Assembly (NCBI GenBank): GCA_049973735.1
Contig: JBMFJL010000002.1
Span: 1-29,414 of the forward strand
Origin: Nanopusillaceae archaeon
GTDB taxonomy: Archaea > Nanobdellota > Nanobdellia > Nanobdellales > Nanobdellaceae
Length of the DNA: 29,414 nt
Direction: 5' to 3'
Shown: piece after piece, positions 998-29,414 of the stretch
How positions within the stretch are numbered: the first letter of the stretch is position 1
Layout of the letters: each line of letters starts with the position of its first letter
The notes under the pieces: generated by a model
The model's database searches: none
The model's input: only the letters and a program-made list of their open reading frames with translations
What the model was told of the DNA's origin: nothing
Position numbers and translations under genes: made by a program

Positions 998-1027
998 AAG
1001 AATAAAATATAAAAAATTTTTAAAAAA

Positions 1028-1378
1028 TTAGTTAAAAATTATTTTTGAGAGCTTTTTCTTTAGTACAGTTTGCATTAGAACACCTAACAGTGTTAATACT
1101 GTTCCAATAATTTGTAAATATCCCGAAGCTGCTATCAAACTTTGAGCACTTCTACCAAGTTCATACAAATTATATAGACCCGATACCAATGCAACAGCAT
1201 ATAATAATAAAGAAGTTAATAGTATTACTATGCCTATATTTGCTATTTTGCAGTCTTCAATTTCCTCTATTAATGAATAAACGAGAATTGATACAACTAC
1301 TGCTGCCATGTATATTTGGAATAACGCCAGTATAATTACTGAAAAAACAGACAACAAAACTGCTTTTTTCCAATCCAT
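1028..1378 (-). CDS. Small integral membrane protein, unknown function (3-4 predicted TM helices)
   Basis: 116-aa ORF made of long hydrophobic stretches (VLLSVFSVIILALFQIYMAAVVVSILVY, IVILLTSLLLYAVALVSGLY, LQIIGTVLTLLGVLM). A TATA-like tttataaat lies about 25-30 nt upstream of the ATG. No recognisable family. Confidence 0.5.
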   Translation of the reverse strand: MDWKKAVLLSVFSVIILALFQIYMAAVVVSILVYSLIEEIEDCKIANIGIVILLTSLLLYAVALVSGLYNLYELGRSAQSLIAASGYLQIIGTVLTLLGVLMQTVLKKKLSKIIFN

Positions 1379-1471
1379 TAAAAAGAACTATAAAAAATAT
1401 TTATAAATTTAATTGTTTTTCCTAAGTAGATAAAAATCTTTTTATTCTATAATCATTAAAATAAGAATATT

Positions 1472-2254
1472 TTAGCTGTTTAATAATAGACTAATTATAT
1501 TTTGTATTTTCTTATCTAACTGATTTAATCCAATTTCTAATATTTTTTCTGCACTATAGCTACCAAAAGATTCGATATAAAATATAAATTCATCTTTTGG
1601 GATAACTTTTATTTTTCCGTTGCTTGCACTTTCTATAGCATCCAAAAAGTTTCTGTCATATTCTTTTCCCTTTGGTACATTTATCTTTTTTCCGCTTACT
1701 TTAACTCCTAAGATATTCAATTTTTCTTTTTCTTCATCTGATAATCCTTCCTCTAATTTTAGTTCTCCAACTCTATAATAGTATACATATCCAGGTACAA
1801 ATTTTCCATGCATTCTTCCATTACCTAAAATAGCAATTGCCTCCAACTTTACCTTTTGCCCTTCTTCTAGATAACCTATTATAGTTTCCGGATAAATTGG
1901 ATAAACTTCTTTATTTTCAGATTTCAAATCTGATGCATATATATATCCTTTTTTGTCTTTATCTAAATATAATTTTATTTGAGTATTTTCAGAAATACCT
2001 TCCGGTGTGTTTAATACTACTAATCCCAATCTATGAGCGAGCATTTCATCCCAAAGAGCAGAAGAATTTTCATGTATAAATACATCTTCTATTGCTAAAG
2101 TTTTAACTTCTTCTTCAATTGTTCTCTTCAATACATTTAAGAAAACAGGACTCTCTCCCTTTATAAGCAATTTTAATTTATATATTTTCCTATCATGATC
2201 TACTGCAAATTTATCTGTTGATTTTTCAACAACAGAAATCTGTACCATAAACAC
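1472..2254 (-). CDS. rpoD: DNA-directed RNA polymerase subunit D (Rpo3)
   Basis: 260 aa. The FLNVLKRTIEEEV and DEMLAHRLGLVVL motifs are typical of the alpha-like Rpo3/RpoD dimerisation domain, and the length is appropriate. There are no cysteines, so no Fe-S domain. Confidence 0.8.
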   Translation of the reverse strand: MFMVQISVVEKSTDKFAVDHDRKIYKLKLLIKGESPVFLNVLKRTIEEEVKTLAIEDVFIHENSSALWDEMLAHRLGLVVLNTPEGISENTQIKLYLDKDKKGYIYASDLKSENKEVYPIYPETIIGYLEEGQKVKLEAIAILGNGRMHGKFVPGYVYYYRVGELKLEEGLSDEEKEKLNILGVKVSGKKINVPKGKEYDRNFLDAIESASNGKIKVIPKDEFIFYIESFGSYSAEKILEIGLNQLDKKIQNIISLLLNS

Positions 2255-2336
2255 ATATTTTTAAAAAATCTTATAAAGTCTTTAATAGGAGAATAAATTT
2301 TATTCGATATATTGTATAAGAATAAAACTCATTTAA

Positions 2337-2408
2337 TGGGACCGCGGGGATTTGAACCCCGGACCTCCGCCTTGTAAGGGCGGCATCATACCCCTAGACT
2401 ACGGTCCC
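2337..2408 (-). tRNA. tRNA-Val (anticodon UAC), no intron, CCA not encoded
   Basis: The reverse complement is GGGACCGTAGTCTAGGGGTATGATGCCGCCCTTACAAGGCGGAGGTCCGGGGTTCAAATCCCCGCGGTCCCA. It folds with a 7-bp acceptor stem, a CCGCC/GGCGG anticodon stem with loop CTTACAA, a CGGGG/CCCCG T-stem with TTCAAAT loop, and discriminator A. It is the only GC-rich island outside coding sequence. Confidence 0.95.
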
Positions 2409-2434
2409 TTAAATATAATTTTAGAAATGAAGAT

Positions 2435-2812
2435 TTAAAAAAGAACTGATGATTCATATTCTATTTCAGATGTTTTTAAATTTATAACTAGTTTATTCTC
2501 TCTGCTACTTTTCCTTATTGATAGTATACCTTTGTCTAAATAGATATTTAATACATAATATTCTATTTCTCTTAGATCATTTTCTTTAGATAATCTTTCT
2601 ACGTCCATAACTTTTACATTATTTATTGATAAAACTTCATAATCACCTGTTAATTTAGAAGATATAGTTAAAGATAAATTATTTCCATTATATCCAACTT
2701 TTATAGAATAATTTTCTCTTTCACATTCAAAGTATAATCCTTCTTTAAAATTTCCTCCACTAATTTTACAGAAAAATGCAAATTCTTTTTTTAATTTATC
2801 TTGGAGTACCAT
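2435..2812 (-). CDS. Hypothetical protein (125 aa from the internal Met), last gene of the redox/Fe-S operon
   Basis: The track ORF is 2435-2848. I prefer Met13 (2812), which sits 1 nt after the stop of the upstream DUF59 gene, whereas Met1 would overlap it by 35 nt. No recognisable motif; the protein looks beta-rich. Confidence 0.45.
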   Translation of the reverse strand: MVLQDKLKKEFAFFCKISGGNFKEGLYFECERENYSIKVGYNGNNLSLTISSKLTGDYEVLSINNVKVMDVERLSKENDLREIEYYVLNIYLDKGILSIRKSSRENKLVINLKTSEIEYESSVLF

Positions 2813-2813
2813 T

Positions 2814-3110
2814 TCATATACCAAGTTCTTTTCTAATCCCTGGATCAACTCTTTCTATGCTCCATTGATTTTCAAAATCTATTTCTATATTTATTTTGTA
2901 TTCATTAGCAAGATCCTGCAGTTTTTCTTTGATACCTTCTAAAATTGCAGGTATAAATGGACATAGTGGAGTAGTTGGCAAAAATTTTATATATATTTCA
3001 TTGTTTTTAATTTTAATTTCTTCTATTTCTCCGAGAGATATAATATCATATCCAATTTCTGGATCTATAACTTCCTTCAATCTTTCTTTAATCATTTCTT
3101 CACTTACCAC
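2814..3110 (-). CDS. DUF59/MIP18-family (SufT/PaaD-like) Fe-S cluster assembly protein
   Basis: 98 aa. IKERLKEVIDPEIGYDIISLGEI...LPTTPLCPF matches the DPE..-I..LG signature and conserved Cys of the DUF59 family. Confidence 0.7.
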   Translation of the reverse strand: MVSEEMIKERLKEVIDPEIGYDIISLGEIEEIKIKNNEIYIKFLPTTPLCPFIPAILEGIKEKLQDLANEYKINIEIDFENQWSIERVDPGIRKELGI

Positions 3111-4084
3111 CTTCCTGTTTTAATATATATAAATGCCGAATATGCTGCTACTGCTCCCTGGGCTGCGGCAGTTATTATTTGTTTAAGTCCACATAATTGT
3201 GTAGTTACATCTCCTGCCCCAAGTATTCCTTTTACATTTGTTTTACCACAATCATCTACTATTATATTTCCAGCTTCATTTAATTTTACACCAACATCTT
3301 TAACTATTTCCGACAACGGAACCAAACCTATTGCAATGAATAATCCATCTAACTTAAGTGTTGATTTTTCTCCAGTTTTTGTATCCTGTAAAACTACTTC
3401 TTCAACTTTTCCATTACCCCTTATTTCAACAACTACTTTATTTAATAGGAATTTTATTTTTGGGTTTTCTTTTGCTTTTTCAACCTCTATCGGATCTGCT
3501 CTAAATTCATCTCTTCTATGAATAATATATACCTCTTTTGCATGTTGAGACAAAACTTGCGCATCATGAAATGCAGAATTACCTCCACCAACTACCCCAA
3601 CAACTTTGTCTTTAAAAAATGCAGCATCACACTCAGCACAATATGATACTCCAGGCAAATTTTCTCCTGGAATTCCCAACTTTTTTCTTTGTGAACCAGT
3701 CGCAATAATTACTACTTTGGATATAAAATCTTTTCCTGTTGAAGTGAATACTTTCAATCTTTCATCCGGTAACTTTTCTACTCTGACTACATTTTCTATT
3801 AAAAATTTTACTCCAAATTTTTCTACATGATTTCTAAATTTCTTTGCTAGGTCGGGTCCACTAATAGATTCAAAGCCTAAATAATCATCTATTAAATTTA
3901 TTTCATTTAGTAGACCACCAATATTTTGTGTAATAACTAGGGTTTTTAATCTATATCTACCAGAATATAGTGCAGCAGCCAGTCCTGCCGGTCCTCCACC
4001 AATAATTATTACATCCCACTCCTTGTCTAGCTCTTCTGATTGTATTTTCATTATTTCTCCACCTATTTTAAATAAGCTATCCAT
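3104..4084 (-). CDS. trxB: Thioredoxin reductase-like FAD/NAD(P) disulfide oxidoreductase
   Basis: FAD motif DVIIIGGGPAGLAAALY, redox centre CAECDAAFF (a CxxCD variant), NAD(P) motif VVGVVGGGNSAFHDA, C-terminal GAGDVT. An alternative start at Met12 (4051) is possible. Confidence 0.85.
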   Translation of the reverse strand: MDSLFKIGGEIMKIQSEELDKEWDVIIIGGGPAGLAAALYSGRYRLKTLVITQNIGGLLNEINLIDDYLGFESISGPDLAKKFRNHVEKFGVKFLIENVVRVEKLPDERLKVFTSTGKDFISKVVIIATGSQRKKLGIPGENLPGVSYCAECDAAFFKDKVVGVVGGGNSAFHDAQVLSQHAKEVYIIHRRDEFRADPIEVEKAKENPKIKFLLNKVVVEIRGNGKVEEVVLQDTKTGEKSTLKLDGLFIAIGLVPLSEIVKDVGVKLNEAGNIIVDDCGKTNVKGILGAGDVTTQLCGLKQIITAAAQGAVAAYSAFIYIKTGRW

Positions 4085-8360: not shown

Positions 8361-8421
8361 TATAAGTTTCAGTTTCCGGGTTCATCATCATTTATCAGAG
8401 AAGATTTATTCATCACTTATA
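8361..8421 (-). ncRNA. C/D box sRNA (2'-O-methylation guide) candidate
   Basis: The minus strand reads tataa-GTGATGA(C)-ataaatcttct-CTGA(D')-taa-ATGATGA(C')-tgaacccggaaa-CTGA(D)-aac-ttata. All four boxes are canonical, the spacers are 11 and 12 nt, and tataa/ttata form possible 5-bp terminal pairing. The C box overlaps the last codons (S-D-E-stop) of tatD. Confidence 0.7.
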
Positions 8422-9164
8422 TTGTATACTTTAATAAAGTTATTAAATATAATTTTCTTAACTTCTTCTATATCGATTTTTTTGATTTCTGATATTGTAT
8501 TCAGTTCATATATTATCTTCCATGAGTTATTTTCACCTTCTCTTAAAGGATCTAGAAATGGAGCATCTGTTTCTGTTAAGATTAAATCTAAGGGAGCATC
8601 TCTTATTATTTTCTTAAATCCGTCATCTCTGTATGCAATTGCCGGAATTGATAAATAACAACCCAAATCTATTGCTTTTTTTGCCAATGCTGGCTTCCAA
8701 AATGTATGCAATACTTTAACAACATTATAACTTTGTATTATCTCCAATACTTCCTTTTCAGCTTTTCTACTATGTATTATTGCAGGTTTTTTAAGTTTTT
8801 CCGCTAATTCTAAAAATTTTTCAAAATAGAATATCTCTTTTTTCTTTTTTTCTTCATCTAAAGGATGATAGAAATCTATACCTATCTCACCAATTGCTAC
8901 AAATTTTTTATCTTTATTATTTTCAATAAAATATAATGTTTCTTCTATTTTTTTATCATCAAGATTATCTATTACATCTGGATATAATCCGAGTGCATAA
9001 TATACTATATCATACTTTTTAGATTCATTAATAACTAGATTAAAACTTTCTAAATCTGTTGCATTTTCTATAATATACTTTACTCCTTTTTCTATATTTT
9101 CAGAGATTTTTTGATCTGCTTTTTCTCCATACATGAATAAATGTGCATGATCATCTACAATCAT
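8406..9164 (-). CDS. tatD: TatD-family metal-dependent hydrolase/DNase (paralogue 1)
   Basis: 252 aa. N-terminal IVDDHAHL (HxH metal site), internal IGEIGIDF, HSR, and TETDAPFL near the C-terminus. Confidence 0.8.
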   Translation of the reverse strand: MIVDDHAHLFMYGEKADQKISENIEKGVKYIIENATDLESFNLVINESKKYDIVYYALGLYPDVIDNLDDKKIEETLYFIENNKDKKFVAIGEIGIDFYHPLDEEKKKKEIFYFEKFLELAEKLKKPAIIHSRKAEKEVLEIIQSYNVVKVLHTFWKPALAKKAIDLGCYLSIPAIAYRDDGFKKIIRDAPLDLILTETDAPFLDPLREGENNSWKIIYELNTISEIKKIDIEEVKKIIFNNFIKVYNISDE

Positions 9165-11185: not shown

Positions 11186-11602
11186 ATGGACATTAAAGAT
11201 TATCTAACTAGAATACCAAGAGCAATTTTATGGTTTGCCATTGCAATCTTTGTTATAGTAGTGTTATATTTAATTTATAGCTACTATATAACTTCGTATT
11301 TACCACCATATTTAAAATATTTTAGCTATAGTTGTCAATTTAATAAAAACGAATCTATAGTAATACTAACAGCAAAAGAAAATATACATAATGTAACTAT
11401 TTATAATTTCTTTGGAACATCAGTATGTTACCTTGGCGATATTGGTCAAGGTTCTATGGATGGTTGTGTTGTAGAAAATAGTTTAGTTGCTGGAGAAGCA
11501 TTAGTTAAAGTATATTATACATCAGATAGTGGAAAAACCTATGTAGCAGTTTTAACATGTAGTGTACCATCATCAGGATTGTTATCTTGGATATTACGTT
11601 AA
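11186..11602 (+). CDS. N-terminally anchored, Cys-containing surface protein; possible type IV pilin-like protein
   Basis: 138 aa. A charged N-terminus ends in PRA and is followed by the hydrophobic helix ILWFAIAIFVIVVLYLIY. The ectodomain has 4 Cys and 2 N-x-S/T sequons. The class III signal peptide assignment is tentative. Confidence 0.45.
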   Translation: MDIKDYLTRIPRAILWFAIAIFVIVVLYLIYSYYITSYLPPYLKYFSYSCQFNKNESIVILTAKENIHNVTIYNFFGTSVCYLGDIGQGSMDGCVVENSLVAGEALVKVYYTSDSGKTYVAVLTCSVPSSGLLSWILR

Positions 11603-12858: not shown

Positions 12859-13307
12859 GGGAATTAAATAAAGGTTATGTTGAAGAATTATTTAAGAAAA
12901 TAGAAGAATACTATGGAGTAAAAGTTGATGAAAAAATAATAAAGAATTACAAATTTTTTATAAATAATGATAACAAGATATATATATTCAACAAAAATTT
13001 TCCATCTAAAATAATTGATGAAAAAATAATAAAAAACAGAGGACTCTATATAATGAGGATAGAAAGGGGAAATATAATAAGATTTAGTATTGAAGGAGCT
13101 CAACTCTTTGGTATAGAATCGAAAAGAATAATTGAGATAAAAAAAGAAAAACTATTTTATTTATCTGAAGAAAATAAAAAAATAGAAGTTGATGTCGAAG
13201 ATGGTTACTATATAGCAAAAGATGGAAAAGATATACTAGGTTCTGTGTATGTAAAAAATAAAGAGTTAAAAGATTTTATACCAAAGGATAGAAAAATTAA
13301 ACTATAA
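12855..13307 (+). CDS. Hypothetical protein, possibly Nip7/PUA-like RNA-binding protein
   Basis: 150 aa. The start overlaps the rfcL stop (ATGA). The overall pattern and C-terminal segment YYIAKDGKDILGSVYVKNKELKDFIPKD loosely resemble archaeal Nip7-type PUA proteins. Contains an internal DEKIIKN duplication. Confidence 0.4.
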   Translation: MRELNKGYVEELFKKIEEYYGVKVDEKIIKNYKFFINNDNKIYIFNKNFPSKIIDEKIIKNRGLYIMRIERGNIIRFSIEGAQLFGIESKRIIEIKKEKLFYLSEENKKIEVDVEDGYYIAKDGKDILGSVYVKNKELKDFIPKDRKIKL

Positions 13308-14954
13308 CTTGACAAGAGATAAGCCTGATAATATTTTCGTAAAGAAGTAGAATATTCCGACATCTAGTAGTGCAGATATCCATAATAATATTGTAAGATC
13401 TAAGAACATACCAAATTTTGATCCACCATCAACATTTTTAATTACTAGAGATAAGACAAATGCCTGAATAATTACTATTATGTATACGAAATTGACTAGA
13501 ATTATTGGTGGTATATTTAAAGTATAGAAAGTTACTCCTATATAAGATATTGAGGCAGAGCTTAATGCGGTAGATACTCCTTGGAACATCTGATTCATAG
13601 AAAAAATTATTTGTAACATTACAAACATTATTGAGGCAAAGGCTATGAAAGTTCCGTAGATAATTCCTCTTAGATTTGATATAAATTGTTCCTTTCTACT
13701 TCTAAGTTCTATCATCTTTATAAGTGTATTATATAACATATCTCCAGCATTTTTCGTATCTCCATTATATTCTAATACTTTTTCGAATACTTTTATAATT
13801 TTTTCAGCTAATCTACTTCCCAATTCAGATATGAAATATTTCCAGGATTCTGAATAATTTTTTGTTATTGTAATCCTCTTTCTCAATTTTTCTATATCTT
13901 CATTAAGCAATCCAAAGTCATGTACTACAACATTGTTCAATATTTTGGTTTGATTACTTCCAAATATTTCAGAATATTCTACAACACTTACAAAAAAAGA
14001 TGGAAAATATTTTTCTTTAGTTTTTAATATTTTTTCTAGATTTATTATTCTGTAACTAACATATGTTAGTGGTGTAATTGCTATTGCAAATGATGGTAAA
14101 AGAGGCAATCCGGCAACGAATAGAAGTATTAGAAATAATATGTATGATAATGTAACAATAATAATAAAATAATTTCTAATCACCATATATTCACGTGGTT
14201 TTTCTTTAGAGGAAGTCCATAGATTGTCTTCTGGAATGAAATATTTAGATACATAGTAGATGATGAGATTAATAGTTACAAAAATTATTAAAAAGTTTAC
14301 TAATAGAATGTATGGATTAATTTCTAATAAAAAAGGAATAAATAATATTAAAGAAAATGTAAATGCTAAAGATGAAGATAAAGAAATAATTAAATCTTGA
14401 AGTAATCTTGTATTTTCTAAACCTTTCTTGTAATTAGCATCATAAACAGTTAATTCTCTCTGATATTCCTTATATAAAAATTCTGACATATCTTCACCAA
14501 TATCTATTGATGTGGCTAATCTTTCCATAAAACTCTTAAAATTACTCTTCGGAATATATGGCAAGGTAAATCTTATGGCTTCTGGAATTGTATAATTATA
14601 TTTCTTAACTAATTTAATAATTATGTTTATATAGCTGTTTATTTCTTTGAAATTTTCACGTTCTTCGACAGATAACTCAAATAATCTCTTTATATTTGAT
14701 GTAGAAAAAGAAAGAGAATACAGATAAGCTATATAAAATAATAATTCTCTATCTAAAGATGCTTTTAACTTAAAATATTTTATGAAAATTACTTCAAGTG
14801 ATAATGCCACAGCAAACAGATACAAAATATTATAATATATTTTTAACTCAGGGAAGTACCTCCCAATTATTATTATAAGAGATATGGACAATACAAATAT
14901 AGCAGTTATCTCGATAAGACTCCTTTTGAGTATCTCCTTAATTAATTCATACAT
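13302..14954 (-). CDS. FlaJ/PilC/TadC-like polytopic membrane platform protein (two T2SS-F-like cytoplasmic domains)
   Basis: 550 aa. N-terminal TM pair, cytoplasmic domain (TIPEAIRFTLPYIPKSNFKSFMERLATSIDIGEDMSEFL), TM cluster, second cytoplasmic domain (SRLAEKIIKVFEKVLEYNGDTKNAGDMLYNTL), C-terminal TMs. This is the duplicated architecture of archaeal FlaJ-type proteins. Confidence 0.6.
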   Translation of the reverse strand: MYELIKEILKRSLIEITAIFVLSISLIIIIGRYFPELKIYYNILYLFAVALSLEVIFIKYFKLKASLDRELLFYIAYLYSLSFSTSNIKRLFELSVEERENFKEINSYINIIIKLVKKYNYTIPEAIRFTLPYIPKSNFKSFMERLATSIDIGEDMSEFLYKEYQRELTVYDANYKKGLENTRLLQDLIISLSSSLAFTFSLILFIPFLLEINPYILLVNFLIIFVTINLIIYYVSKYFIPEDNLWTSSKEKPREYMVIRNYFIIIVTLSYILFLILLFVAGLPLLPSFAIAITPLTYVSYRIINLEKILKTKEKYFPSFFVSVVEYSEIFGSNQTKILNNVVVHDFGLLNEDIEKLRKRITITKNYSESWKYFISELGSRLAEKIIKVFEKVLEYNGDTKNAGDMLYNTLIKMIELRSRKEQFISNLRGIIYGTFIAFASIMFVMLQIIFSMNQMFQGVSTALSSASISYIGVTFYTLNIPPIILVNFVYIIVIIQAFVLSLVIKNVDGGSKFGMFLDLTILLWISALLDVGIFYFFTKILSGLSLVKL

Positions 14955-20457: not shown

Positions 20458-21734
20458 TGTTTGAAGATATATTAGAGCTAATAAAACCAGATGAAAAGGA
20501 AAGAAGAAAAGCATATAGCACAATTGAAGAATTTTATCAAATATTAAAGGAAAATGGTCTAGAACCTTTTTTAGGTGGATCATTTGCGAAAGATACCTGG
20601 TTGAGAGGAGATTTTGATATAGATACATTTGTATTATTTGAAAAAGATGAAAAAATGTCTGAAAAAATAGAGAATGTATTGAAAAAGGAAAAATTAGATT
20701 ATATAAAAATTAGAGGATCTAGAGACTATTTCAGGGTAAATTATAAAGATTACATATTTGAGTTAGTACCTGTTCTGAAAATTAAAGATATAAATGAAGC
20801 TAAAAATATAACTGATTTATCTCCATTTCATGTAAAATATGTAAAAGAAAAAATAGAGAAAACTAATTTAAACGATGAAATAAGGTTGGCAAAAGCATTT
20901 ATGAAAAATATTAATGTATATGGAGCAGAATCTTATATAAATGGTTTTTCTGGTTATGCAGTGGAATTACTTGTAATATATTATGGTTCATTTATTAATT
21001 TGATAGAAAATGCTTCAAAATGGAAACCGAAAGTAATAATAGATATAGAAAGATATTATAAAAATTTTGAAGAAATAAAGAATAATCTCTCAAAGGATAA
21101 ATTAAAATCTCCGATAATAATAATAGATCCGATAAATAAATATAGAAATGTTGGAGCTTCGGTATCTATACAAAAGTTTTCAGAATTTATATATTATTCA
21201 AGATTATTTTTGAATGATGTAGATAAAAAGAAATATTTTTTAACGAAAATCTATAAAAGTAAAGAAGAAATAGATAATTTAGCTAATAAGTACGGAGTGA
21301 ATATTTTATATTTACAAATAGAAGGGAATTCAAACAATAAAGATATAAAAAATACAAAGGCCTTAGTTTTGTTTAATTTTATAAAAAGAAATATAAGTTT
21401 ATTTGGATTCAAAATATTTAATAATTATTTCTATTTTGAGAATGATAAGCTTATAGGTTATATAATGTACTATCCGAAGAAATTACCAGAGTATGAAGTA
21501 AGAGAGGGTCCATTAATCTGGAATAGCGAAGATTTTAACAGATTCTATGAAAAACATAAGGGAGAAGAATTGTTTATAAGAAATTCTAGGATATATGCTA
21601 TAACAAAAAGAAAAGTAAATGATATAGATAGTGTGATAAAACATATATTGGATAATTACAAAAACAATATAAAAGAAAAAGCAAAATATTTATTAATTGA
21701 AACAGAAAATAATAAATTTGAAATGAAGTTTTGA
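20454..21734 (+). CDS. cca: CCA-adding enzyme (archaeal class I tRNA nucleotidyltransferase)
   Basis: 426 aa. GGSFAKDTWLRGDFDIDTFV catalytic motif, LSPFHVKYV, RLAKAFMK. The start overlaps the aRF1 stop. Confidence 0.85.
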   Translation: MMFEDILELIKPDEKERRKAYSTIEEFYQILKENGLEPFLGGSFAKDTWLRGDFDIDTFVLFEKDEKMSEKIENVLKKEKLDYIKIRGSRDYFRVNYKDYIFELVPVLKIKDINEAKNITDLSPFHVKYVKEKIEKTNLNDEIRLAKAFMKNINVYGAESYINGFSGYAVELLVIYYGSFINLIENASKWKPKVIIDIERYYKNFEEIKNNLSKDKLKSPIIIIDPINKYRNVGASVSIQKFSEFIYYSRLFLNDVDKKKYFLTKIYKSKEEIDNLANKYGVNILYLQIEGNSNNKDIKNTKALVLFNFIKRNISLFGFKIFNNYFYFENDKLIGYIMYYPKKLPEYEVREGPLIWNSEDFNRFYEKHKGEELFIRNSRIYAITKRKVNDIDSVIKHILDNYKNNIKEKAKYLLIETENNKFEMKF

Positions 21735-21790
21735 AGTTATTTCAAGATAATTTAATTTTTAAAGATAATATAAAAGAATTTAAATTAGGG

Positions 21791-22492
21791 ATGAGCAAGC
21801 TATCTACTGGTATATATCCTATAGATAAGATGCTGGATGGGGGTATAGAGACAGATATAATTACTTCATTTTATGGTCCATCTGCATCTGGTAAAACCAA
21901 TATTGCATTAATAACCACTTATAATGTAACAAGATTAAATAAAAAAGTTATATTTATAGATACGGAAGGAGGATTTTCTTTTGAGAGATTGAAGCAAATA
22001 TCTAAAGAGGAATTCGAAAATTCTCTTAGAAATATATTATTATACAAACCAATGAGTTTTTTAGAACAGAAAAAAGCTATATTTTTGGCATATGAGAAGG
22101 TAAAGGAAAATCCGGATAGTATAGGTCTTGTAGTAGTAGATTCGATATCTATGCTATATAGATTGGAAAAGGGTGATGAAAATGTGAATGAAGTCAATAT
22201 GGAGTTGGCTAAACAATTACAAATACTCTCAGAAATTGCTAGAAAATATAATATACCGGTTTTGGTAACAAATCAGGTATATTCTTTAATTGAAGAAAAA
22301 AACAAAATAGGTATTGTTGGGGGCGATTTAATAAAATATTGGTCTAAATGTTTGATAGAGCTAAAAGTTTATGATAATGGAGTAAGAGAAGCTATATTGA
22401 GAAAACATAGATACCTTCCAGAAGGAATATCTGTGAAATTTAAAATAGTAAATGACGGAATAATAGAATATAAAGAAATAGATAAAATATAA
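21791..22492 (+). CDS. radB: DNA repair and recombination protein RadB
   Basis: LSTGIYPIDKMLDGGIE, Walker A GPSASGKTN, IDTEGGFSFERL, Walker B LVVVDSI, NIPVLVTNQV. No N-terminal HhH domain, so RadB rather than RadA. I prefer ATG 21791 over the track's TTG at 21731. Confidence 0.85.
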   Translation: MSKLSTGIYPIDKMLDGGIETDIITSFYGPSASGKTNIALITTYNVTRLNKKVIFIDTEGGFSFERLKQISKEEFENSLRNILLYKPMSFLEQKKAIFLAYEKVKENPDSIGLVVVDSISMLYRLEKGDENVNEVNMELAKQLQILSEIARKYNIPVLVTNQVYSLIEEKNKIGIVGGDLIKYWSKCLIELKVYDNGVREAILRKHRYLPEGISVKFKIVNDGIIEYKEIDKI

Positions 22493-22496
22493 AAAA

Positions 22497-22901
22497 TTAT
22501 TTAAAATTTTTTAATACATCAGAGGCCTCTTCTTCTGTAAGTTTGTGTGTGGTCCAATTAAATAGTTTGGAAAATCCATTTTCTTCGTACTGTGGTATTA
22601 TATGTATATGTGCATGAAATATTGTTTGTCCAGCATTCTTACCATTGTTTATTATAATATTATAATCTTTTGAAACCTTTTCTTCATATATCTTTAAGAA
22701 TTTTTCAAAACTTAGGAAGAAATTTTTGCTGTATGATTCATCCATTTTTGATATTCGCTCAAAATGTTTCTTTGGTATAAACAATGTATGACCTTTGTTT
22801 ACAGGGTTTATATCTAATATTGCTATCGCATATTCATCTTCATATAATACATAGGCCTTTATTTCTTTTTTTATAATTTTGCAAAATACACAGTTATCCA
22901 T
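22497..22901 (-). CDS. HIT (histidine triad) family nucleotide hydrolase
   Basis: 134 aa. CVFCKI N-terminus and the HAHIHIIP histidine triad. Confidence 0.85.
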   Translation of the reverse strand: MDNCVFCKIIKKEIKAYVLYEDEYAIAILDINPVNKGHTLFIPKKHFERISKMDESYSKNFFLSFEKFLKIYEEKVSKDYNIIINNGKNAGQTIFHAHIHIIPQYEENGFSKLFNWTTHKLTEEEASDVLKNFK

Positions 22902-24048
22902 TTATAGTTAATTTATCCAAAACTTTTTTAATATCTTCACTATCTGCAACATACTTAAAATTGCTGAATACAAGTGCTTTGAGGTTTCTTTTTTCTTCTT
23001 CCCTAATATTATTTATGAAATCTTTTATTTCCTTTTCAAGTTCTTCTAAATTTCTTCTATGCAATCTTTTTTCATTTATTATATCCTCAATACTCTTTTT
23101 TTCTTTAATATAATAGTAATATATTATAGGAACAGCATTTTTTACAATTTTTTTATCTTTTAGATATCTAACTATATTATATATGAAATTTATATCAAAA
23201 TCTTCTATTTTTTCTTTGAATATTGATGATACATCTCCCAACAATTGAAAGAACAAATAATAGACTGTGTTTGGATCAATTTCTAAAGATAATTTTATTA
23301 TATCATAAATATATTCATTCCAAATTATATTTTCTATTTGCTTATCATTATAGCCAATTTTTTTTAAAAGATCTCGCATAAAAGATGGATCTATAGAATT
23401 TAATACTTCTTTTCCTTCTTTATATAACCTTAAAAATGTATCATAATCATTATTTTTAACATTATAGATTTCATATTTGTAATTTATATTACCATAGGAA
23501 ATGTCATAAATAATTATATCATATTTTTCGCCCTCTATAATATTTCTATTTATGAATATATATGGATGATCCGTTTCCGGGTACATTCTTTCGGATCCTG
23601 GTTGGGGTCTAAGAAATGTTGTGGTCCCGTCATCATTAGCTTGTCTGGTATCCTTTGGTACACCTCTTATAAATTCGTTAATTCTGTGGATTATCAATCT
23701 AAAAACCTTTTTTGCAGTATCAATATCTGGAGACATCAATAAAATATATCCATCATTTTCACTACAATTTAATATTTCCTTAACTTTTTTTACTTCTTCT
23801 TCGCTAATTCCATAACCAGGTAATTCATCCGAATGCAATATACCTTTAAGACCAAATCTTTTTGCTACATCGGCAAGTTCTGTTCCAATCCTTCTATTTG
23901 GCATTATTTCATAACCTATTAAACCTTTCAATTTTTCTAACTTTATTCCATATACCTTATATCCTTTTTCTAGTGCTAATCTAACTAAATTAGATTTTGT
24001 ATTGTTAAATATGTTTGTTAGATCATATATTTTTGTCTTATATATCAT
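22894..24048 (-). CDS. gatE: Glu-tRNA(Gln) amidotransferase subunit E, C-terminal portion only (GAD/AspRS-like insertion domain onward)
   Basis: 384 aa. RRIGTELADVAKRFGLKGILHSDELPGYGISEEEV, then GVPKDTRQANDDGTTTFLRPQPGSERMYPETDHP, then a helical tail. These motifs lie in the middle and C-terminal part of the roughly 620-aa GatE. The N-terminal cradle domain is not encoded upstream; only 30 nt separate this gene from tfe. Confidence 0.7.
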   Translation of the reverse strand: MIYKTKIYDLTNIFNNTKSNLVRLALEKGYKVYGIKLEKLKGLIGYEIMPNRRIGTELADVAKRFGLKGILHSDELPGYGISEEEVKKVKEILNCSENDGYILLMSPDIDTAKKVFRLIIHRINEFIRGVPKDTRQANDDGTTTFLRPQPGSERMYPETDHPYIFINRNIIEGEKYDIIIYDISYGNINYKYEIYNVKNNDYDTFLRLYKEGKEVLNSIDPSFMRDLLKKIGYNDKQIENIIWNEYIYDIIKLSLEIDPNTVYYLFFQLLGDVSSIFKEKIEDFDINFIYNIVRYLKDKKIVKNAVPIIYYYYIKEKKSIEDIINEKRLHRRNLEELEKEIKDFINNIREEEKRNLKALVFSNFKYVADSEDIKKVLDKLTING

Positions 24049-24726: not shown

Positions 24727-25455
24727 TTAATAGATAAATTTTAAAAAGTTTTCTGTTATCTGTTCATATAACTTATCTAGAGAAATATTCTTTATTTCCG
24801 CAACTCTCTTATACAGGTCAAGAAGCATTTCTGGATGTAAAATTATATTTTTATATCTATATGGCCCGTCAGATTCTAGTAAAATGTTTTTAATATTTGT
24901 TATTTCAATATATTTTTCATATTTTTTGTTAATTAAAGTAGCTACGTTTATTCCAATAAAGTATCCTTTATCCTGTATTTCTTCTAATAATTTTTCATCC
25001 CCACTGTACCAATGAAAATATGCCTTTTTAATATCATATTTTATTAATAAATCGAAAACCTCCCTTTGTGCTTCTGGGCTATGCAGGTTGACAGATAAAT
25101 CATATTCTTTTGCCAATTCCAAAAATTTTTTAAAAATATCTACCTGTTTTTCAAAAGTCTCTGGTTTAAATTTTTTGTCTAATCCTATTTCACCTAAAAC
25201 TCCTATTTTTTCCTTATCTATAATATCTCTAATAGTTTCTATAGATTTCTCATTAAATTTTTCTACATTCCATGGATGTATACCTACTGCAGGTATAACA
25301 TTTTCATTTAGTTTACTAATCGTAAGATTTTTTATTGAGGACTCAAGATCTTCAGATACTGATAATATTACTAAGTTTTCATATTTATTTAAAATTCTCC
25401 TAGCTTCTAATTGACTAAAATTATAAAAATGACAGTGACTATCTATTATTTTCAT
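24727..25455 (-). CDS. tatD: TatD-family metal-dependent hydrolase/DNase (paralogue 2)
   Basis: 242 aa. MKIIDSHCHF, GEIGLDK, NLHS, and ESDGPY near the C-terminus. Confidence 0.8.
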   Translation of the reverse strand: MKIIDSHCHFYNFSQLEARRILNKYENLVILSVSEDLESSIKNLTISKLNENVIPAVGIHPWNVEKFNEKSIETIRDIIDKEKIGVLGEIGLDKKFKPETFEKQVDIFKKFLELAKEYDLSVNLHSPEAQREVFDLLIKYDIKKAYFHWYSGDEKLLEEIQDKGYFIGINVATLINKKYEKYIEITNIKNILLESDGPYRYKNIILHPEMLLDLYKRVAEIKNISLDKLYEQITENFLKFIY

Positions 25456-25856
25456 TGTGTTATATTCAATAATTGGTTTTTATATATTATATTTTTTACA
25501 GAACAGTTTTCATTTAATATTATTAGGCTATTAACATTTCCACACAAGTTTTTATTTTCTTTAGATATTTGACATCCCCAATCAAGATCTCCAATATAAT
25601 AATTTAAATAAGATTGCCAATCATTATAAAATATTGATTGAGGAGAAGTCAAACAACCCTCTGTTAAATTAATAGACAAATTATACTTTGCATAGTAGCA
25701 TATGGATTGACAGTAACCAGATACTTGAGAAATTTTATATAATTCGCTTTGGTTTATATTTGAATTACCTCTACTTATAGAATAAAAGTAAGGGGCTAAG
25801 AAGCCAGCTATAAATAACAATCCTATCACAAGACCGAAAGCTTTCCTTTTTTCCAT
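25452..25856 (-). CDS. Cys-rich secreted/anchored protein with class III (prepilin-like) signal peptide candidate
   Basis: 134 aa. MEKRKA followed by FGLVIGLLFIAGFLAPYF (K at -2, A at -1, then a hydrophobic helix). The ectodomain has 7 Cys and about 5 N-x-S/T sequons. Its stop overlaps the tatD start (ATGA). Confidence 0.5.
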   Translation of the reverse strand: MEKRKAFGLVIGLLFIAGFLAPYFYSISRGNSNINQSELYKISQVSGYCQSICYYAKYNLSINLTEGCLTSPQSIFYNDWQSYLNYYIGDLDWGCQISKENKNLCGNVNSLIILNENCSVKNIIYKNQLLNITQ

Positions 25857-25887
25857 AAACAGAAATTATATAAAATGATTAAAAAAC

Positions 25888-26616
25888 TTATGTTCTTTTC
25901 ATGGCATCTCTTAAACTTTTTAATTCTTCAATTGTTTCTCTTAATTCTTTTGTTGATTCTGATATAGCAGGAATCATTGTTCTTATTAATCTATGCAATG
26001 CTTGTATTTCTGTAGTAGCCTCTTGTATTCCTTTATCATATTCCTCTAATTTCTTAGTTGCCATATTGCTTATCTCCTGTATTCTATTTTCTAATCTATG
26101 AATATTTTCTTCGATTTTATCAATGGTATATTCTATCTTTTCCTTCCATATTTTTAGATGGTTTATTTCATCTCTAATTTGACTTAACTTATCTTCTATC
26201 ATATTTTCTACTAAAGAGTTTATATAGCTTTCAGATGGGTAGTCGAATGTTGATTTAGTTTGACCAAAGCCTGTTGATTGAAATGCATTTTGCTGTGTAA
26301 AATTCTGTTGAGGTTGGAAAGATAAATTTTGCTGTGATAAATTTTGAGAGAAATTTTGTGGAGGCATAAACTGATTAGAAAAGTTATTGCTTGGTTGACC
26401 CATTGATTGATACATATTATTTTGAGGCATATTAAATCCTAACTGGGTACTTTGTTGGGTTTGTTGCATAGTTGGACCAAATTGATAATTCATACCTTGA
26501 TCTAATGGGTAGTTACCAAAGCCCTGATTGTTCTGAAATAATGAATTTACATCTATATTATCTCTGGGTTGATTATCTTTAGCTTTACCCTTGCCAAACA
26601 GACTTACACCTTTCAT
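25888..26616 (-). CDS. Q/N/F-rich low-complexity (FG-dipeptide) protein with C-terminal coiled coil
   Basis: 242 aa. Residues about 14-121 are roughly 40% Gln+Asn (43 of 108 by my count), almost uncharged, with LFG, GFG, QFG and GFG. Residues about 130-242 show heptad-like helical sequence (IRDEINHLKIWKEKIEYTIDKIEENIHRLENRIQEI...). Confidence 0.6.
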   Translation of the reverse strand: MKGVSLFGKGKAKDNQPRDNIDVNSLFQNNQGFGNYPLDQGMNYQFGPTMQQTQQSTQLGFNMPQNNMYQSMGQPSNNFSNQFMPPQNFSQNLSQQNLSFQPQQNFTQQNAFQSTGFGQTKSTFDYPSESYINSLVENMIEDKLSQIRDEINHLKIWKEKIEYTIDKIEENIHRLENRIQEISNMATKKLEEYDKGIQEATTEIQALHRLIRTMIPAISESTKELRETIEELKSLRDAMKRT

Positions 26617-26656
26617 AAGATTATAAACTACTGTGATAGTTATAAATTTTTATTTT

Positions 26657-27043
26657 CTAATACTTTTCCTTTATATCTGTATATTTATCTTTGTTAAGAA
26701 GAGATTCCAAGTATCTCTTTATTCTTTCATCAATAATCTTTTCTGCTTCTTTTTTTGTCATAAAATCCATAGGATTCATATAATCTATAAAAGTTTCTAA
26801 AGTTTTTATTTGATCCACTGTAGCAAATAAAGATAACTGATCAGTTATAGCTTTAATTTTAATTTCTAAATCATCTATTTTATCTTTTATGCTTTGTAGC
26901 TCCTTTTCTATTTTTTCTATTTTTTCTTGTATATTACTAATAGAAGATCTGGTCGTATAGTCGATAGAGGATATTATATTATTAAACATAGAGATTTTCT
27001 CTTCAATGTATTTTATTCTCTTGATCAAATTGATATCAGACAT
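26657..27043 (-). CDS. Coiled-coil protein, unknown function
   Basis: 128 aa. IQEKIEKIEKELQSIKDKIDDLEIKIKAITDQL is heptad-rich. It is the first gene divergent from the ATPase. Confidence 0.55.
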   Translation of the reverse strand: MSDINLIKRIKYIEEKISMFNNIISSIDYTTRSSISNIQEKIEKIEKELQSIKDKIDDLEIKIKAITDQLSLFATVDQIKTLETFIDYMNPMDFMTKKEAEKIIDERIKRYLESLLNKDKYTDIKEKY

Positions 27044-27083
27044 ATTAAAATTTATATTGATTAGAATATATTAATTTTTTTAG
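27044..27083. promoter_or_regulatory. 40-bp bidirectional promoter spacer (coiled-coil operon / ATPase operon)
   Basis: tttatatt (27051-27058) lies 26-33 nt upstream of the ATPase ATG. attaatatattc (minus strand, 27064-27075) lies 21-32 nt upstream of the coiled-coil gene ATG. Both are preceded by A-rich BRE-like sequence. Confidence 0.35.
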
Positions 27084-29327
27084 ATGAACATTTCTTTACA
27101 ATACGAAATAAAAAAGGAAGGAAAAGAGAGAATTCTGTACATTGATGCTAGAGGGTACCAAAATATCGCAACCATCGAGGACGATCCCGAAATTATGGAA
27201 TTTGTCTTGAATATATTACTATCAGACCCTGCTATAGATACAATAATGATAGAACAAGATGAACTAATAGAATATTATCATGATTCTATAAAGATATTAA
27301 AATATTTTTTGGATCCATATTATGTAGTCAGGGAAAATATAAAAGCATATTATCAGTATTTAATAACTGCCAACCCTCTTTATAAAGAAGTTAGAGACAT
27401 AATAAATGCTTTAGATAAAAATTATCTAAAGGATCCTATAGGTACTTATCTATATATAAGGAGATACAAAAAATATTTGTTATCTTTAGCCAAAAATAAT
27501 AAAAGTCTTGAAGATCATGTAAACAATTTATTATCGTTATTAGATAATTTTCTAATTAAATTCGAGTCTTTACCATTCTATAAATATATAAAACCGTTTT
27601 TAATAGGACATGAAACCAGTAATAGAGAGATATACAGGAGATTATTCATAGCAGACATAAAACCTAAGTTTGTTGATACAAAATACTTACTAAAAATAGA
27701 GGAAATGTATAATGTTGTAGAATCATACAAATTAGATAAAAATACAGAAGTATTTATTTTAAAAAATCCGGAAGAAAGTGTTTTCAGATACTACATATTT
27801 CCGGAAGAATATAAGATATTTACTGAAGAGACATTTCTAGCACACAAGGCTATAGATATATTGTTACAGTATGAACCTAAGAGGGAGGATTATTTAGATG
27901 TAGAAAAACTCAGAGATATATATAATAATATATTGGATAATATATTGACAAAGTTATCTGGTTTATATAATATTAAATTAAACAAAGATCAATATGAAAT
28001 ATTAAAAAGTATCATACTTAGATATACAATTGGTTTTGGTATTATAGAAAAAATTGTTCTAGATGAGAATTTAGAAGATCTATTTGTCAATCCACCCCCG
28101 GGAATTGCTCCAATATCTTTGCAACATGGAAAATACGAACTATGTGTAACCAACGTAACTCCAACTAGAAAAGAAATAGAATCTTGGGCTACAAAATTAA
28201 GGTTAATTTCTGGAAGACCATTTGATGAAGCAAATCCTGTATTGGATACCGATCTTGTATTGGGAAAAGATATTCTGTTAAGAGTTGCCGCTATTTCTCC
28301 TCCCTTATCTCCTGCCGGTATTGCATATATATTAAGAAGGCATAGAGCAAAACCATGGACCCTACCACTATTTATAAAAAACAAGATGATAAATTATTTT
28401 GCTGCAGGCCTTTTATCATTTATAGTAGCAAATGGAAGAGCAATACTAATTGCTGGTACTAGAGGAAGTGGAAAAACGTCATTGTTAACTTCTTTGATGT
28501 TAGAATTACCAAAGAAAACTAGAATAATAACTGTAGAAGATACTTTAGAAATACCAGCAGATTATTTCAGAAAATTAGGATATAATATAGTTCCTCTAAA
28601 AGTAAGAAGTCCTTTTTCAATAAAATCCGCAGAATTATCTGCAGAAGATGGTCTAAGAGTTTCTCTAAGAATGGGAGATAGTGCAATTATTGTTGGGGAA
28701 GTTAGATCTAAAGAGGCACAGACTTTATATGAAGCTATGAGAATTGGAGCAATGGCCAATGCGGTCATGGGTACTTTACATGCGGAGAGTCCATATGGAG
28801 TATATGATAGAGTAGTAAATGATTTGGGTGTACCTAAAACATCCTTCAAAGCAACAGATATAATAGTAATTGTAAATCCAATAAGAGATCCTTCCGGACT
28901 TCATAGATATAGAAGAGTTTTAAGAATTACTGAAGTAAGAAAATTCTGGGAAGAAGATCCATTGAAAGAGAGAGGTTTTGTAGATTTAATGATATATGAT
29001 AGTGATAAAGATAACTTAGAGCCAACCTTAGAATTAATTAATGGTGATTCGGATGTTTTAAAGGCTATAGCAAGTAGAATAAAGTATTTGTCAAAATCTT
29101 GGGATAGAGTTTGGAACATGATAGAGACAAATGGATTATCAAAGAAAATTTTAGTAGATATTGCAAATGAAAAGAATAGACCTGATATTCTTGAAGCAGA
29201 TTTTGTTTCTACTTATAATGAAATGTATAGGTATTATATAAATGAAAGCATAAAAGAATATGGAGACATAAACAAGGAATATATATTGGACAATTTAAGG
29301 AAATGGATTTTAAAGAAAATACAGTAG
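27084..29327 (+). CDS. Type II/IV secretion-family ATPase (FlaI/PilB/VirB11 superfamily) with a long N-terminal extension
   Basis: 747 aa. Walker A LIAGTRGSGKTSLL at about aa 455-468, RIITVEDTLEI, IIVGEVRSKEAQTLYEAMRIG, GTLHAES. The preceding LRVAAISPPLSPAGIAYILRRH is typical of this family's N-terminal domain. The first 330 or so aa are unrecognisable. Confidence 0.85.
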   Translation: MNISLQYEIKKEGKERILYIDARGYQNIATIEDDPEIMEFVLNILLSDPAIDTIMIEQDELIEYYHDSIKILKYFLDPYYVVRENIKAYYQYLITANPLYKEVRDIINALDKNYLKDPIGTYLYIRRYKKYLLSLAKNNKSLEDHVNNLLSLLDNFLIKFESLPFYKYIKPFLIGHETSNREIYRRLFIADIKPKFVDTKYLLKIEEMYNVVESYKLDKNTEVFILKNPEESVFRYYIFPEEYKIFTEETFLAHKAIDILLQYEPKREDYLDVEKLRDIYNNILDNILTKLSGLYNIKLNKDQYEILKSIILRYTIGFGIIEKIVLDENLEDLFVNPPPGIAPISLQHGKYELCVTNVTPTRKEIESWATKLRLISGRPFDEANPVLDTDLVLGKDILLRVAAISPPLSPAGIAYILRRHRAKPWTLPLFIKNKMINYFAAGLLSFIVANGRAILIAGTRGSGKTSLLTSLMLELPKKTRIITVEDTLEIPADYFRKLGYNIVPLKVRSPFSIKSAELSAEDGLRVSLRMGDSAIIVGEVRSKEAQTLYEAMRIGAMANAVMGTLHAESPYGVYDRVVNDLGVPKTSFKATDIIVIVNPIRDPSGLHRYRRVLRITEVRKFWEEDPLKERGFVDLMIYDSDKDNLEPTLELINGDSDVLKAIASRIKYLSKSWDRVWNMIETNGLSKKILVDIANEKNRPDILEADFVSTYNEMYRYYINESIKEYGDINKEYILDNLRKWILKKIQ

Positions 29328-29414
29328 CTGTACAAGGACAATTTGCAGATTTAGAAAAAAGAATAAGATATTATAAGTATTTTTATTTTGGAGAAACCCT
29401 TAGATATTATGAAA
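29303..29414 (+). CDS. 5' end of a gene overlapping the ATPase stop (possible FlaJ/PilC-like partner), truncated by the window end
   Basis: The ATG at 29303 opens a frame (MDFKENTVAVQGQFADLEKRIRYYKYFYFGETLRYYE) that stays open to the window end and overlaps the ATPase gene by 25 nt. The product assignment comes only from the usual ATPase-platform gene order. Confidence 0.35.
   Translation, partial: MDFKENTVAVQGQFADLEKRIRYYKYFYFGETLRYYE

Follow-up and report, generated by a model that had tools for sequence, protein, structure and literature searches.

Among archaeal type IV filament (TFF) systems, the haloarchaeal PilB2/PilC2 system, which adjoins cetZ2, belongs to subclade 4F (arCOG01818) in the classification of Makarova et al. 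(2016). The section of that paper on clades 4C and 4F mentions a nanoarchaeal ATPase of the same clade (PMC4858521). On cultured members of the Nanobdellales, archaella and nanotubes are seen together with a second, "rough" appendage. They also have an attachment organelle, observed by electron cryotomography in YN1 and YN4, which consists of a layered cone, a 25-nm portal, and an 8-nm filament that enters the host. Published descriptions assign no protein components to the cone, the portal, the 8-nm filament, or the "rough" appendage. In bacteria, PilB/PilC-type type IV pili mediate host binding by episymbiotic Saccharibacteria, according to two reports (PMC9894109, PMC11623550).

Here, we present an analysis of a divergent gene cluster in a contig of a Nanopusillaceae archaeon (GCA_049973735.1, JBMFJL010000002.1). 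The window analyzed is this whole contig of 29,414 bp (~27% GC). The central gene of the cluster encodes a 747-residue ATPase and overlaps a gene for a membrane platform protein, which is cut by the contig end at 29414; on the other strand lie two genes for coiled-coil proteins, here called cc1 and cc2. We consider it probable, with moderate confidence, that this locus is the motor module of a non-archaellum TFF machine that is conserved across the Nanobdellota (Nanopusillaceae/Nanobdellaceae, Nanoclepta, and Woesearchaeota- and Pacearchaeota-type genomes) and plausibly serves in adhesion or host contact. More specifically, sequence comparisons point to an archaeal TFF motor of clade 4 (4F-like) that is accompanied by a conserved pair of coiled-coil proteins not described before and is misannotated as FlaI in cultured strains; the clade assignment is indirect, as detailed below.

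Four genes that travel together

The locus contains the following features (ORF, open reading frame).

25452-25856, minus strand: gene for a 134-residue protein (ORF)
25888-26616, minus strand: cc2 gene, 242 residues (ORF)
26657-27043, minus strand: cc1 gene, 128 residues (ORF)
27044-27083, no strand: divergent promoter spacer of 40 bp with two TATA-like boxes (sequence reading)
27084-29327, plus strand: gene for a secretion-superfamily (T2SSE/FlaI/PilB/VirB11) ATPase, 747 residues (ORF, PF00437)
29303-29414, plus strand: platform gene, first 37 codons only (ORF running off the contig end)

The three minus-strand ORFs and the ATPase ORF have exactly the coordinates and sizes given in an initial annotation of this DNA. 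The overlap of the ATPase stop codon by a new ORF is likewise 25 nt (start at 29303), and the same 25-nt overlap is found in relatives; the ATPase is translationally coupled to a large polytopic platform protein.

Conservation of the gene neighborhood was followed in a scan of one genome per species. At least 594 ATPase matches were confirmed by tblastn, and the best 80 loci, which span Nanopusillus, Nanopusillaceae, Woesearchaeota, and Pacearchaeota, were analyzed (L numbers below refer to individual loci). Using hidden Markov models built from the loci, linkage was counted in the 74 loci whose upstream sequence extends to 1.5 kb or more. cc1 and cc2 are directly adjacent to the ATPase gene and divergent in 44 of these 74 loci; the pair lies within ~2.5 kb of it, with one inserted gene between, in ~15 further loci, and ~12 loci have no cc1-cc2 pair within 6 kb. 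Altogether, cc1-cc2 is found beside the ATPase in ~80% of the 74 loci, down to an ATPase identity of 41%. The two genes occupy the same place in the same orientation in Nanobdella, AP031373, Nanoclepta, Nst1, a relative with 51% identity, and a Woesearchaeota-like genome with 44% identity, and BLASTP of the cc1 and cc2 orthologues in these six genomes gave E values between 1e-10 and 1e-55. The platform gene is directly downstream of the ATPase gene in 66 of the 80 loci. The remaining flanking genes vary between lineages. Because the cc1-cc2-ATPase linkage is kept while the other flanks change, we define the core of the locus as four genes: those for the ATPase, the platform, cc1, and cc2 travel together.

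These observations extend the linkage between the divergent coiled-coil genes and the ATPase, which the initial annotation had put forward as a point to check in related genomes, well beyond the family. They also revise its description of the proteins as lineage-specific accessories, in that cc1 and cc2 are conserved across Woese-, Pace-, and Nanopusillaceae-type genomes, that is, a phylum-level group. The genome is very gene dense, and the same minus-strand run continues into the clearly unrelated genes for TatD, TFIIE-alpha, a GatE fragment, and HIT, so the divergent genes might be mere neighbors with no relation to the ATPase. However, the persistence of cc1-cc2 beside the ATPase at these frequencies and identities, while other flanks change, contradicts this explanation for cc1 and cc2, and we give it almost no credence; for the 134-residue gene, it is possible.

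Genes inserted between cc1 and the ATPase were considered as a fifth component and rejected, as they are mutually unrelated (nitrilase-like, transposase-like). In L029, the insert at this position (1935-3128, plus strand; 397 residues) resembles by eye a transposon nuclease of the TnpB/OrfB type, its C-terminus bearing a CxxC...CxxC zinc ribbon. L005 (GCA_054017035) carries a second TFF cluster at 192-3247, 6 kb upstream of the module, in which a 509-residue ATPase (407 bits on the FlaI model) is divergent from two T2SSF platform genes; second T2SSE ATPases are also present in L050 and L070. About 20 of the 80 loci (L013, L018, L019, L023, L028, and L030, among others) are titled "uncultured Methanosarcinales archaeon" and one "Armatimonadota bacterium"; these titles probably reflect taxonomic mislabels or misbinned contigs in public assemblies.

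The ATPase is a bona fide member of the FlaI/PilB secretion superfamily. All four motifs quoted in the initial annotation are present (GTRGSGKTS at residue 458, RIITVEDTLE at 480, GEVRSKEA at 538, and TLHAES at 564), and Pfam PF00437 (T2SSE) matches residues 362-596 with 74.6 bits, above the cut-off of 24.9. Residues invariant in 16 orthologues comprise G458, T459, R460, G463, K464, and S466 of the Walker A motif; E485, D486, L488, and E489 of the Asp box; G538, E539, R541, S542, E544, and A545 of the Walker B motif; and T564 and H566 of the His box. The protein is divided as follows.

Residues ~1-190: N-terminal extension, a small alpha/beta unit and a helical bundle, confidently modelled
Residues ~200-420: FlaI/GspE-like N domains
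Residues ~440-640: ATPase core, with Walker A at 458-466, Asp box at 480-489, Walker B at 534-545, and His box at 564-569
Residues ~657-746: helical C-terminal extension

A core like that of Archaeoglobus fulgidus GspE (afGspE) and FlaI is accompanied by ~190 extra N-terminal and ~90 extra C-terminal residues, and both extensions are conserved family-wide. Among proteins in the PDB, the ATPase matched afGspE (2OAP, 2e-30), CpaF (2e-24), and Sulfolobus acidocaldarius FlaI (4II7, 2e-17) by sequence. The AlphaFold2 model has a predicted local distance difference test score (pLDDT) of 78, lower in parts of the core; in Foldseek, ~500 of the 747 residues matched 2OAP with a template modeling (TM) score, normalized to the target, of 0.81 (E = 7.6e-22) and 4II7 with one of 0.71. 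The whole protein contains a single cysteine, at residue 354.

Because the window ends with the contig, sequence beyond 29414 was taken from relatives. In Nanobdella aerobiophila, AP031373, Nanoclepta, Nst1, and genomes farther removed, the overlapping downstream ORF encodes a polytopic membrane protein of 652 to 788 residues, in which ~8 to 10 hydrophobic segments form two repeats of a cytoplasmic domain plus transmembrane segments. A FlaJ/PilC-like protein had been anticipated at this position, and the gene found there may encode a diverged platform, with a weak T2SSF match: PF00482 (T2SSF) is the commonest Pfam match (13 of 38 members) and the sole family signal that recurs, with a best E value of 3.5e-5, but in the closest relatives, L001 and L003, it falls below the cut-off. 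An hhalign comparison with one bona fide T2SSF protein gave a weak match (E = 0.089), and the platform profile had no match in the PDB. Based on position, topology, and this weak homology, we infer that the platform is a diverged TadC/PilC/FlaJ-type protein, the second cytoplasmic domain of which is T2SSF-like.

The 40-bp spacer between cc1 and the ATPase contains the two opposed TATA-like boxes noted initially, and both are conserved in seven relatives. The box TTTATATT at 27051-27058 lies ~30 nt before the ATPase ATG, and the box AATATATTAA at 27065-27074 lies, on the minus strand, ~27 nt upstream of the cc1 start codon; each box is thus 27 to 30 nt upstream of a start codon across the spacer. 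Assigned to the genes according to the standard archaeal TATA-to-start spacing, the boxes would constitute two interleaved archaeal promoters, and both mRNAs would be leaderless or nearly so. Because the DNA is only 27% GC, we regard the TATA-box evidence as modest.

Relation to the archaellum

The orthologues of the ATPase in N. aerobiophila (L001) and AP031373 (L003) are annotated as "flagella-related ATPase FlaI" at NCBI. Moreover, Nanobdella, YN1, and YN4 have been observed to bear archaella, and their genomes reportedly contain archaellum genes. It is conceivable on these grounds that the ATPase and its platform are the archaellum pair ArlI/ArlJ of the lineage, with the archaellum genes dispersed in a reduced genome. 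The sequence models do not bear this out. On the NCBIfam FlaI equivalog model (NF058587), the ATPase scores 131.8 bits compared with a cut-off of 550, and this is lower than the scores of three unrelated DPANN TFF ATPases from the fetched loci (245 to 407 bits). The platform orthologues of L001, L088, and L007 had no NCBIfam match at E ≤ 0.01, ArlJ models included. Neither ArlH, archaellins, nor ArlF/G was detected in the window or, in four relatives, within 10 kb beyond the window end, where genes for diphthamide synthase, Nre, a PUA protein, AsnC, and translation factors are located. The initial proposal of a non-archaellum locus therefore stands: the FlaI score is far below the cut-off, the platform lacks an ArlJ match, there are no archaellum neighbors, the coiled-coil proteins do not score as FlaC/D/E with archaellum genes just beyond the window, and the linkage is not lost in relatives.

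The associated statement that FlaB, FlaF, FlaG, and FlaH are missing is correct for the locus, but an ArlJ/FlaJ-like gene is present elsewhere in the window. This gene (13302-14954, minus strand; 550 residues) is a full-length match to ArlJ/FlaJ (NF004704, E = 7.8e-84), with 282 bits, below the cut-off of 550. It is solitary between plus-strand genes, with no ArlI or ArlH gene adjoining, 12 kb from the ATPase gene, and corresponds to the 549-residue Nst1 FlaJ of Makarova et al. Because this gene stands alone, the archaellum genes indeed appear to be dispersed in the lineage, as the archaellum explanation supposes; however, the ATPase has its own overlapping platform of 668 residues, which has no ArlJ match, and the ArlJ-like gene is separate from it. 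A RecA-like gene 4.6 kb upstream (21731-22492, plus strand, TTG start) was considered as ArlH and rejected, as it encodes RadB (TIGR02237, 241 bits compared with a cut-off of 172). A 138-residue protein is encoded at 11186-11602 (plus strand), between two genes for RFC subunits and two genes from the ArlJ-like gene. It has a class III-like N-terminus, MDIKDYLTRIPRA/ILWFAIAIFVIVVLYLIY (the slash marks the cleavage point here and below), and a beta-rich, Cys-containing C-terminal part but no Pfam or NCBIfam match; it could be an ArlF/G-like protein or a pilin.

Mapping to the literature also separates the ATPase from the archaellum. Nst1 has an identical module, Nst1_442-445, encoding the platform, the ATPase (Nst1_443), cc1 (Nst1_444), and cc2 (Nst1_445). 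The clade was mapped by arithmetic from GenInfo identifiers (GI) to locus tags, not by a tree; five anchor points agree with one another. When genes are counted along the syntenic stretch, FlaJ falls at Nst1_461 and the ATPase at Nst1_443; as the Nst1 FlaJ is gi 490715622 (549 residues, arCOG01809), the offset of 161 leads to gi 490715604 for the ATPase. By the same arithmetic, the "FlaI paralogs" of Podar et al. (Nst1_088, 227, and 260) map to the three clade 2 entries. In the supplements of Makarova et al. (PMC4858521), gi 490715604 is listed as "Clade_4," sister to Nanoarchaeum equitans gi 41615211, and stands in the supplementary tree next to a branch of Methanomassiliicoccales and halobacteria; Nst1 also has a separate clade 3 archaellum ATPase in addition to the 549-residue FlaJ, and N. 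equitans has no clade 3 ATPase and keeps the clade 4 ATPase. N. equitans is stated to lack an archaellum (PMC3655853). On this mapping, the Nst1 orthologue would belong to clade 4 and not to the archaellum clade 3.

Thus, the Nst1 orthologue maps to clade 4 in an organism with a distinct clade 3 ATPase, an orthologous ATPase is retained in an organism without an archaellum, and the family is present in hundreds of Woesearchaeota and Pacearchaeota genomes. Together with the model scores, these points largely refute the idea that the module is the archaellum pair, which we now regard as very unlikely. Papers that list ArlI/FlaI for the Nanobdella and AP031373 strains may instead be counting a non-archaellum gene. 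At the same time, the term "uncharacterised" used in the initial annotation goes too far, since the ATPase clade in nanoarchaea had already been catalogued by Makarova et al. (clade 4, discussed with subclade 4F).

The coiled-coil pair, the pilins, and the proposed machine

cc1 is a cytoplasmic coiled-coil protein of 128 residues with a conserved C-terminal motif, KYIDLWxPxxFVTxxEV. Orthologues were found in 65 loci, including MJ1_0512 in Nanobdella and Nst1_444 in Nst1. Its database matches are unannotated or carry "hypothetical" or generic automated labels, and 117 of 120 among the matches listed have no precomputed Pfam domain. cc2 consists of an N-terminal basic-hydrophobic motif, MKGVSLFGKGKAK, a disordered Q/N/F-rich region of ~115 residues, and a helix of 115 residues (127-241) that carries the conserved EKW...WK...EYDK...E(I/V)(K/Q)A(L/M)(E/H) motifs. 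In the AlphaFold2 model, residues 1-125 have a pLDDT below 50 and residues 127-241 form a single helix with a block-mean pLDDT of at least 94 over ~140-240. In Woesearchaeota-type cc2 proteins, a UBA-like three-helix segment and a P/Q linker replace the disordered part. Orthologues of cc2 were found in 59 loci, and an exhaustive profile search of 1.84 billion proteins gave 1,616 cc2 representative clusters at E ≤ 1e-10; public sources label cc2, Nst1_445 included, "hypothetical," "uncharacterized," or with generic automated names.

Neither protein has a transmembrane segment or a specific family match in Pfam, NCBIfam, or the PDB, and there is no consistent Pfam family across 55 cc2 members. 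In the profile search for FlaC/D/E that had been suggested, cc2 matched FlaC_arch (PF05377) with E = 0.011 and 16.6 bits, below the cut-off of 27.8 and over the coiled-coil segment only; FlaC_arch is absent from the 25 families matched most among 55 cc2 orthologues, and cc1 has no FlaC_arch or Arch_fla_DE match. The weak prefoldin and FlaC_arch matches were rejected because they are compositional, and matches of the cc1 and cc2 profiles to phage tail fibre, phosphoprotein, and designed coils were set aside as generic coiled-coil noise. An ESCRT-III-like identity of the cc2 N-terminus (LFGxKKK) was also considered but dropped: just 61 of 251 family members have the motif, and AlphaFold2 predicts a single helix. 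In hhalign, cc1 aligned with the C-terminal domain of cc2 with a probability of 72% (E = 3e-5, 116 columns), and the motifs [ED](V/I)K(V/A)(L/M)EK...(W/L)P are common to both. Based on this alignment and the common motifs, we suggest that cc1 and cc2 are probably ancient paralogues. Altogether, we conclude that they represent two new protein families.

We propose the following mechanism for the module. The hexameric ATPase would dock on the cytoplasmic domains of the platform, and ATP hydrolysis would pull pilins with class III signal peptides from the membrane and polymerize them into a thin surface filament. cc1 and cc2 would form a hetero-oligomeric coiled coil ~17 nm long that binds the extra N- or C-terminal domains of the ATPase and, at the membrane, tethers the motor, positions it, or regulates it, a role that would be analogous to that of ArlX/ArlCDE in archaella or of the coiled-coil protein of haloarchaeal 4F. 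Docking of cc1/cc2 on the ATPase extensions would fit a recent proposal in which such extra domains act as the binding surfaces for accessory proteins specific to a subsystem (Sivabalasarma and Albers, 2026 preprint). In Nanobdellales, the pilin genes would lie elsewhere; some Woesearchaeota and Pacearchaeota would have them directly after the platform gene. The filament would most plausibly serve these host-dependent archaea in adhesion or host contact.

The 134-residue protein had been singled out as prepilin-like and could accordingly be the filament subunit of the machine: its N-terminus in the window, MEKRKA/FGLVIGLLFIAGF, fits the class III cleavage pattern; its gene always adjoins cc2 in Nanobdellales-like genomes; and it is extracytoplasmic and disulfide rich, with sequons. 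It has five N-X-S/T sequons, in agreement with the description as sequon rich, and six cysteines (residues 49, 53, 68, 95, 105, and 118), not seven as first counted. All six are invariant among orthologues and probably form three disulfides. However, the K-A/F motif is not conserved in eight orthologues, in which the -2 and -1 positions vary (MNKTKIIG, MDKNKEIIV, MKRLIILL, and MNKSLAF), and the N-terminal hydrophobic helix, a membrane anchor, is equally expected of a plain signal anchor. Because the class III-like motif is unconserved, the protein is not supported as a pilin.

The distribution of the gene points in the same direction. It was found in 8 of 88 scanned loci and in Nst1, that is, only in Nanobdellales-like relatives (the window, Nanobdella, AP031373, Nanoclepta, two Nanopusillus, two Nanopusillaceae, and Nst1) and always between cc2 and TatD. 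L005, L007, and the Woesearchaeota/Pacearchaeota loci do not have it next to cc2, and all of the more distant lineages keep the other four genes without it. Moreover, its stop codon overlaps the start of the TatD gene (24727-25455, minus strand) by 4 nt, so it is translationally coupled to a different gene. The protein has no Pfam or NCBIfam match. We regard it as a membrane-anchored, disulfide-rich surface protein that is a peripheral and doubtful member of the module, and consider a role as the pilin quite improbable. The TatD-family nuclease at 24727-25455 has a paralogue in the same 29 kb, at 8406-9164 (minus strand).

In more distant genomes, genes for proteins with class III-like N-termini of the KKG/xELS type followed by a hydrophobic helix are found just downstream of the platform gene in at least eight loci, the Woesearchaeota/Pacearchaeota loci L043, L071, L078, L079, L084, L086, L057, and L074. 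This arrangement suggests, at the level of sequence, that the module family assembles pilins.

Several observations weigh against the proposed machine. The pilin-like genes of the distant loci have no Pfam match, and a stricter class III filter gave seven candidates downstream of the ATPase and five upstream, which are too few for statistics; with seven compared with five, the pilin link is only suggestive. No established pilin or prepilin peptidase (PibD/FlaK/EppA) is encoded in the locus or the 29-kb contig, the one pilin candidate in the locus, the 134-residue protein, fails the conservation test, and Makarova et al. found no cognate pilins for the nanoarchaeal ATPase clade and reported the prepilin peptidase to be absent in two nanoarchaea (PMC4858521). 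In addition, the matches behind the T2SSF assignment of the platform are weak, and the idea that cc1 and cc2 touch each other or the ATPase comes from gene linkage only.

The absence of a pilin or peptidase from the locus and the window, and of cognate pilins for the clade in the survey of Makarova et al., speaks for the main rival explanation, in which the module is a repurposed TFF-derived machine without a pilus that moves other cargo (protein, DNA, or lipid exchange with the host) or remodels the envelope, with cc1 and cc2 as a cytoskeletal scaffold. Standard pilus motors have neither so large a platform nor such ATPase extensions, and the Thermoproteal subsystem 4D, an ATPase and platform without pilins, is a precedent accepted in the literature. 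In Nanobdellales, moreover, the gene directly after the module encodes a membrane protein and is translationally coupled to that for a TatD nuclease, although this TatD adjacency is confined to Nanobdellales-like genomes. On the other hand, the class III-like genes right after the platform gene in several Woesearchaeota/Pacearchaeota loci argue for a filament, the module has kept every catalytic motif and, in its platform, the two-repeat build of systems that assemble filaments, and archaeal TFF pilins are often encoded apart from the motor genes (PMC4858521). We consider a machine without a pilus unlikely, though it deserves to be taken seriously, and continue to favor the filament-assembling motor.

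A more far-reaching proposal is that the module is the assembly motor of the attachment organelle of the Nanobdellales (YN1, YN4). In this scenario, the ATPase and platform would extrude the ~8-nm filament through the apical portal into the host, and cc1 and cc2, with a 17-nm helix and a Q/N-rich disordered region, would form or nucleate the layered cytoplasmic cone. Woesearchaeota and Pacearchaeota would use this machine, there with pilin genes next to it, as their general device for contact with a host. No result here ties the module to the cone, and the module has a much broader distribution than is known for the organelle; we offer this idea as a speculation with a small chance of being correct. 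It is, however, reasonable to view the module as a candidate for one of the non-archaellar filaments.

The remainder of the window contains housekeeping genes. Among these, a 384-residue ORF at 22894-24048 (minus strand) matches only the C-terminal part of GatE (model positions ~278-446 of 630, E = 2.9e-73), and a GatE-like gene of 381 to 383 residues is also present in Nanobdella and Nst1. This ORF possibly represents a GatE that is truncated or split, which would recall the split genes known from Nanoarchaeota.

Significance and comparison with known systems

DPANN archaea, including the Nanobdellota, depend on physical contact with a host, and the module is candidate machinery for this contact. 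It is among the few envelope-associated machines conserved from Nanopusillaceae to Woesearchaeota and is also kept by a lineage without an archaellum. The misannotation as FlaI in cultured strains could mislead the interpretation of transcriptomic and proteomic data. The four-gene core, the cc1 and cc2 families, and the separate archaellum platform gene provide concrete targets for work in existing cocultures.

The module shares with archaellar ArlI/ArlJ the ATPase fold (FlaI 4II7, TM score 0.71) and an overlapping ATPase-platform pair, and the cytoplasmic coiled-coil proteins cc1 and cc2 are plausibly analogous to the ArlX/ArlC/D/E scaffolds. In contrast to the archaellum, the module fails the ArlI and ArlJ equivalog models, has no ArlH, ArlF/G, or archaellin genes nearby, and contains an ATPase with ~280 extra residues; a 2026 preprint describes the ATPases of archaella as the most minimal ones. 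afGspE (2OAP) is the best solved match to the ATPase by both sequence (2e-30) and fold (TM score 0.81), and the two share a hexameric secretion-ATPase architecture with N1 and N2 domains. Nevertheless, they are only 22% identical, afGspE lacks the 190-residue N-terminal and 90-residue C-terminal extensions, and, judging from GI numbering, it probably belongs to a different archaeal ATPase clade.

With regard to function, the Saccharibacteria (candidate phyla radiation) resemble the organisms that carry the module in being ultrasmall and host dependent, and they provide an analogy for the proposed role. By this analogy, an attachment role of the module is plausible. Their system is a bacterial type IVa pilus with known pilins and experimental support, and its homology to the module is limited to the ATPase and platform superfamilies.

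Among the described archaeal systems, 4F resembles the module in that Nst1_443 maps to clade 4, in the pairing of an ATPase with a TadC/PilC-like protein, and in the presence of extra N-terminal ATPase domains. Moreover, the halobacterial 4F system has an intracellular coiled-coil protein (arCOG07564), the likeness of which to cc1 and cc2 is by description only. The adjacent pilins, adhesin, S-layer-like protein, and CetZ2 of 4F are without counterparts in the locus of the module, and the N-terminal domain of the 4F ATPase is variable and Cys rich, whereas the module ATPase has only Cys354 and an extension that is not Cys rich. Conversely, two paralogous coiled-coil genes in a fixed divergent arrangement distinguish the module from 4F.

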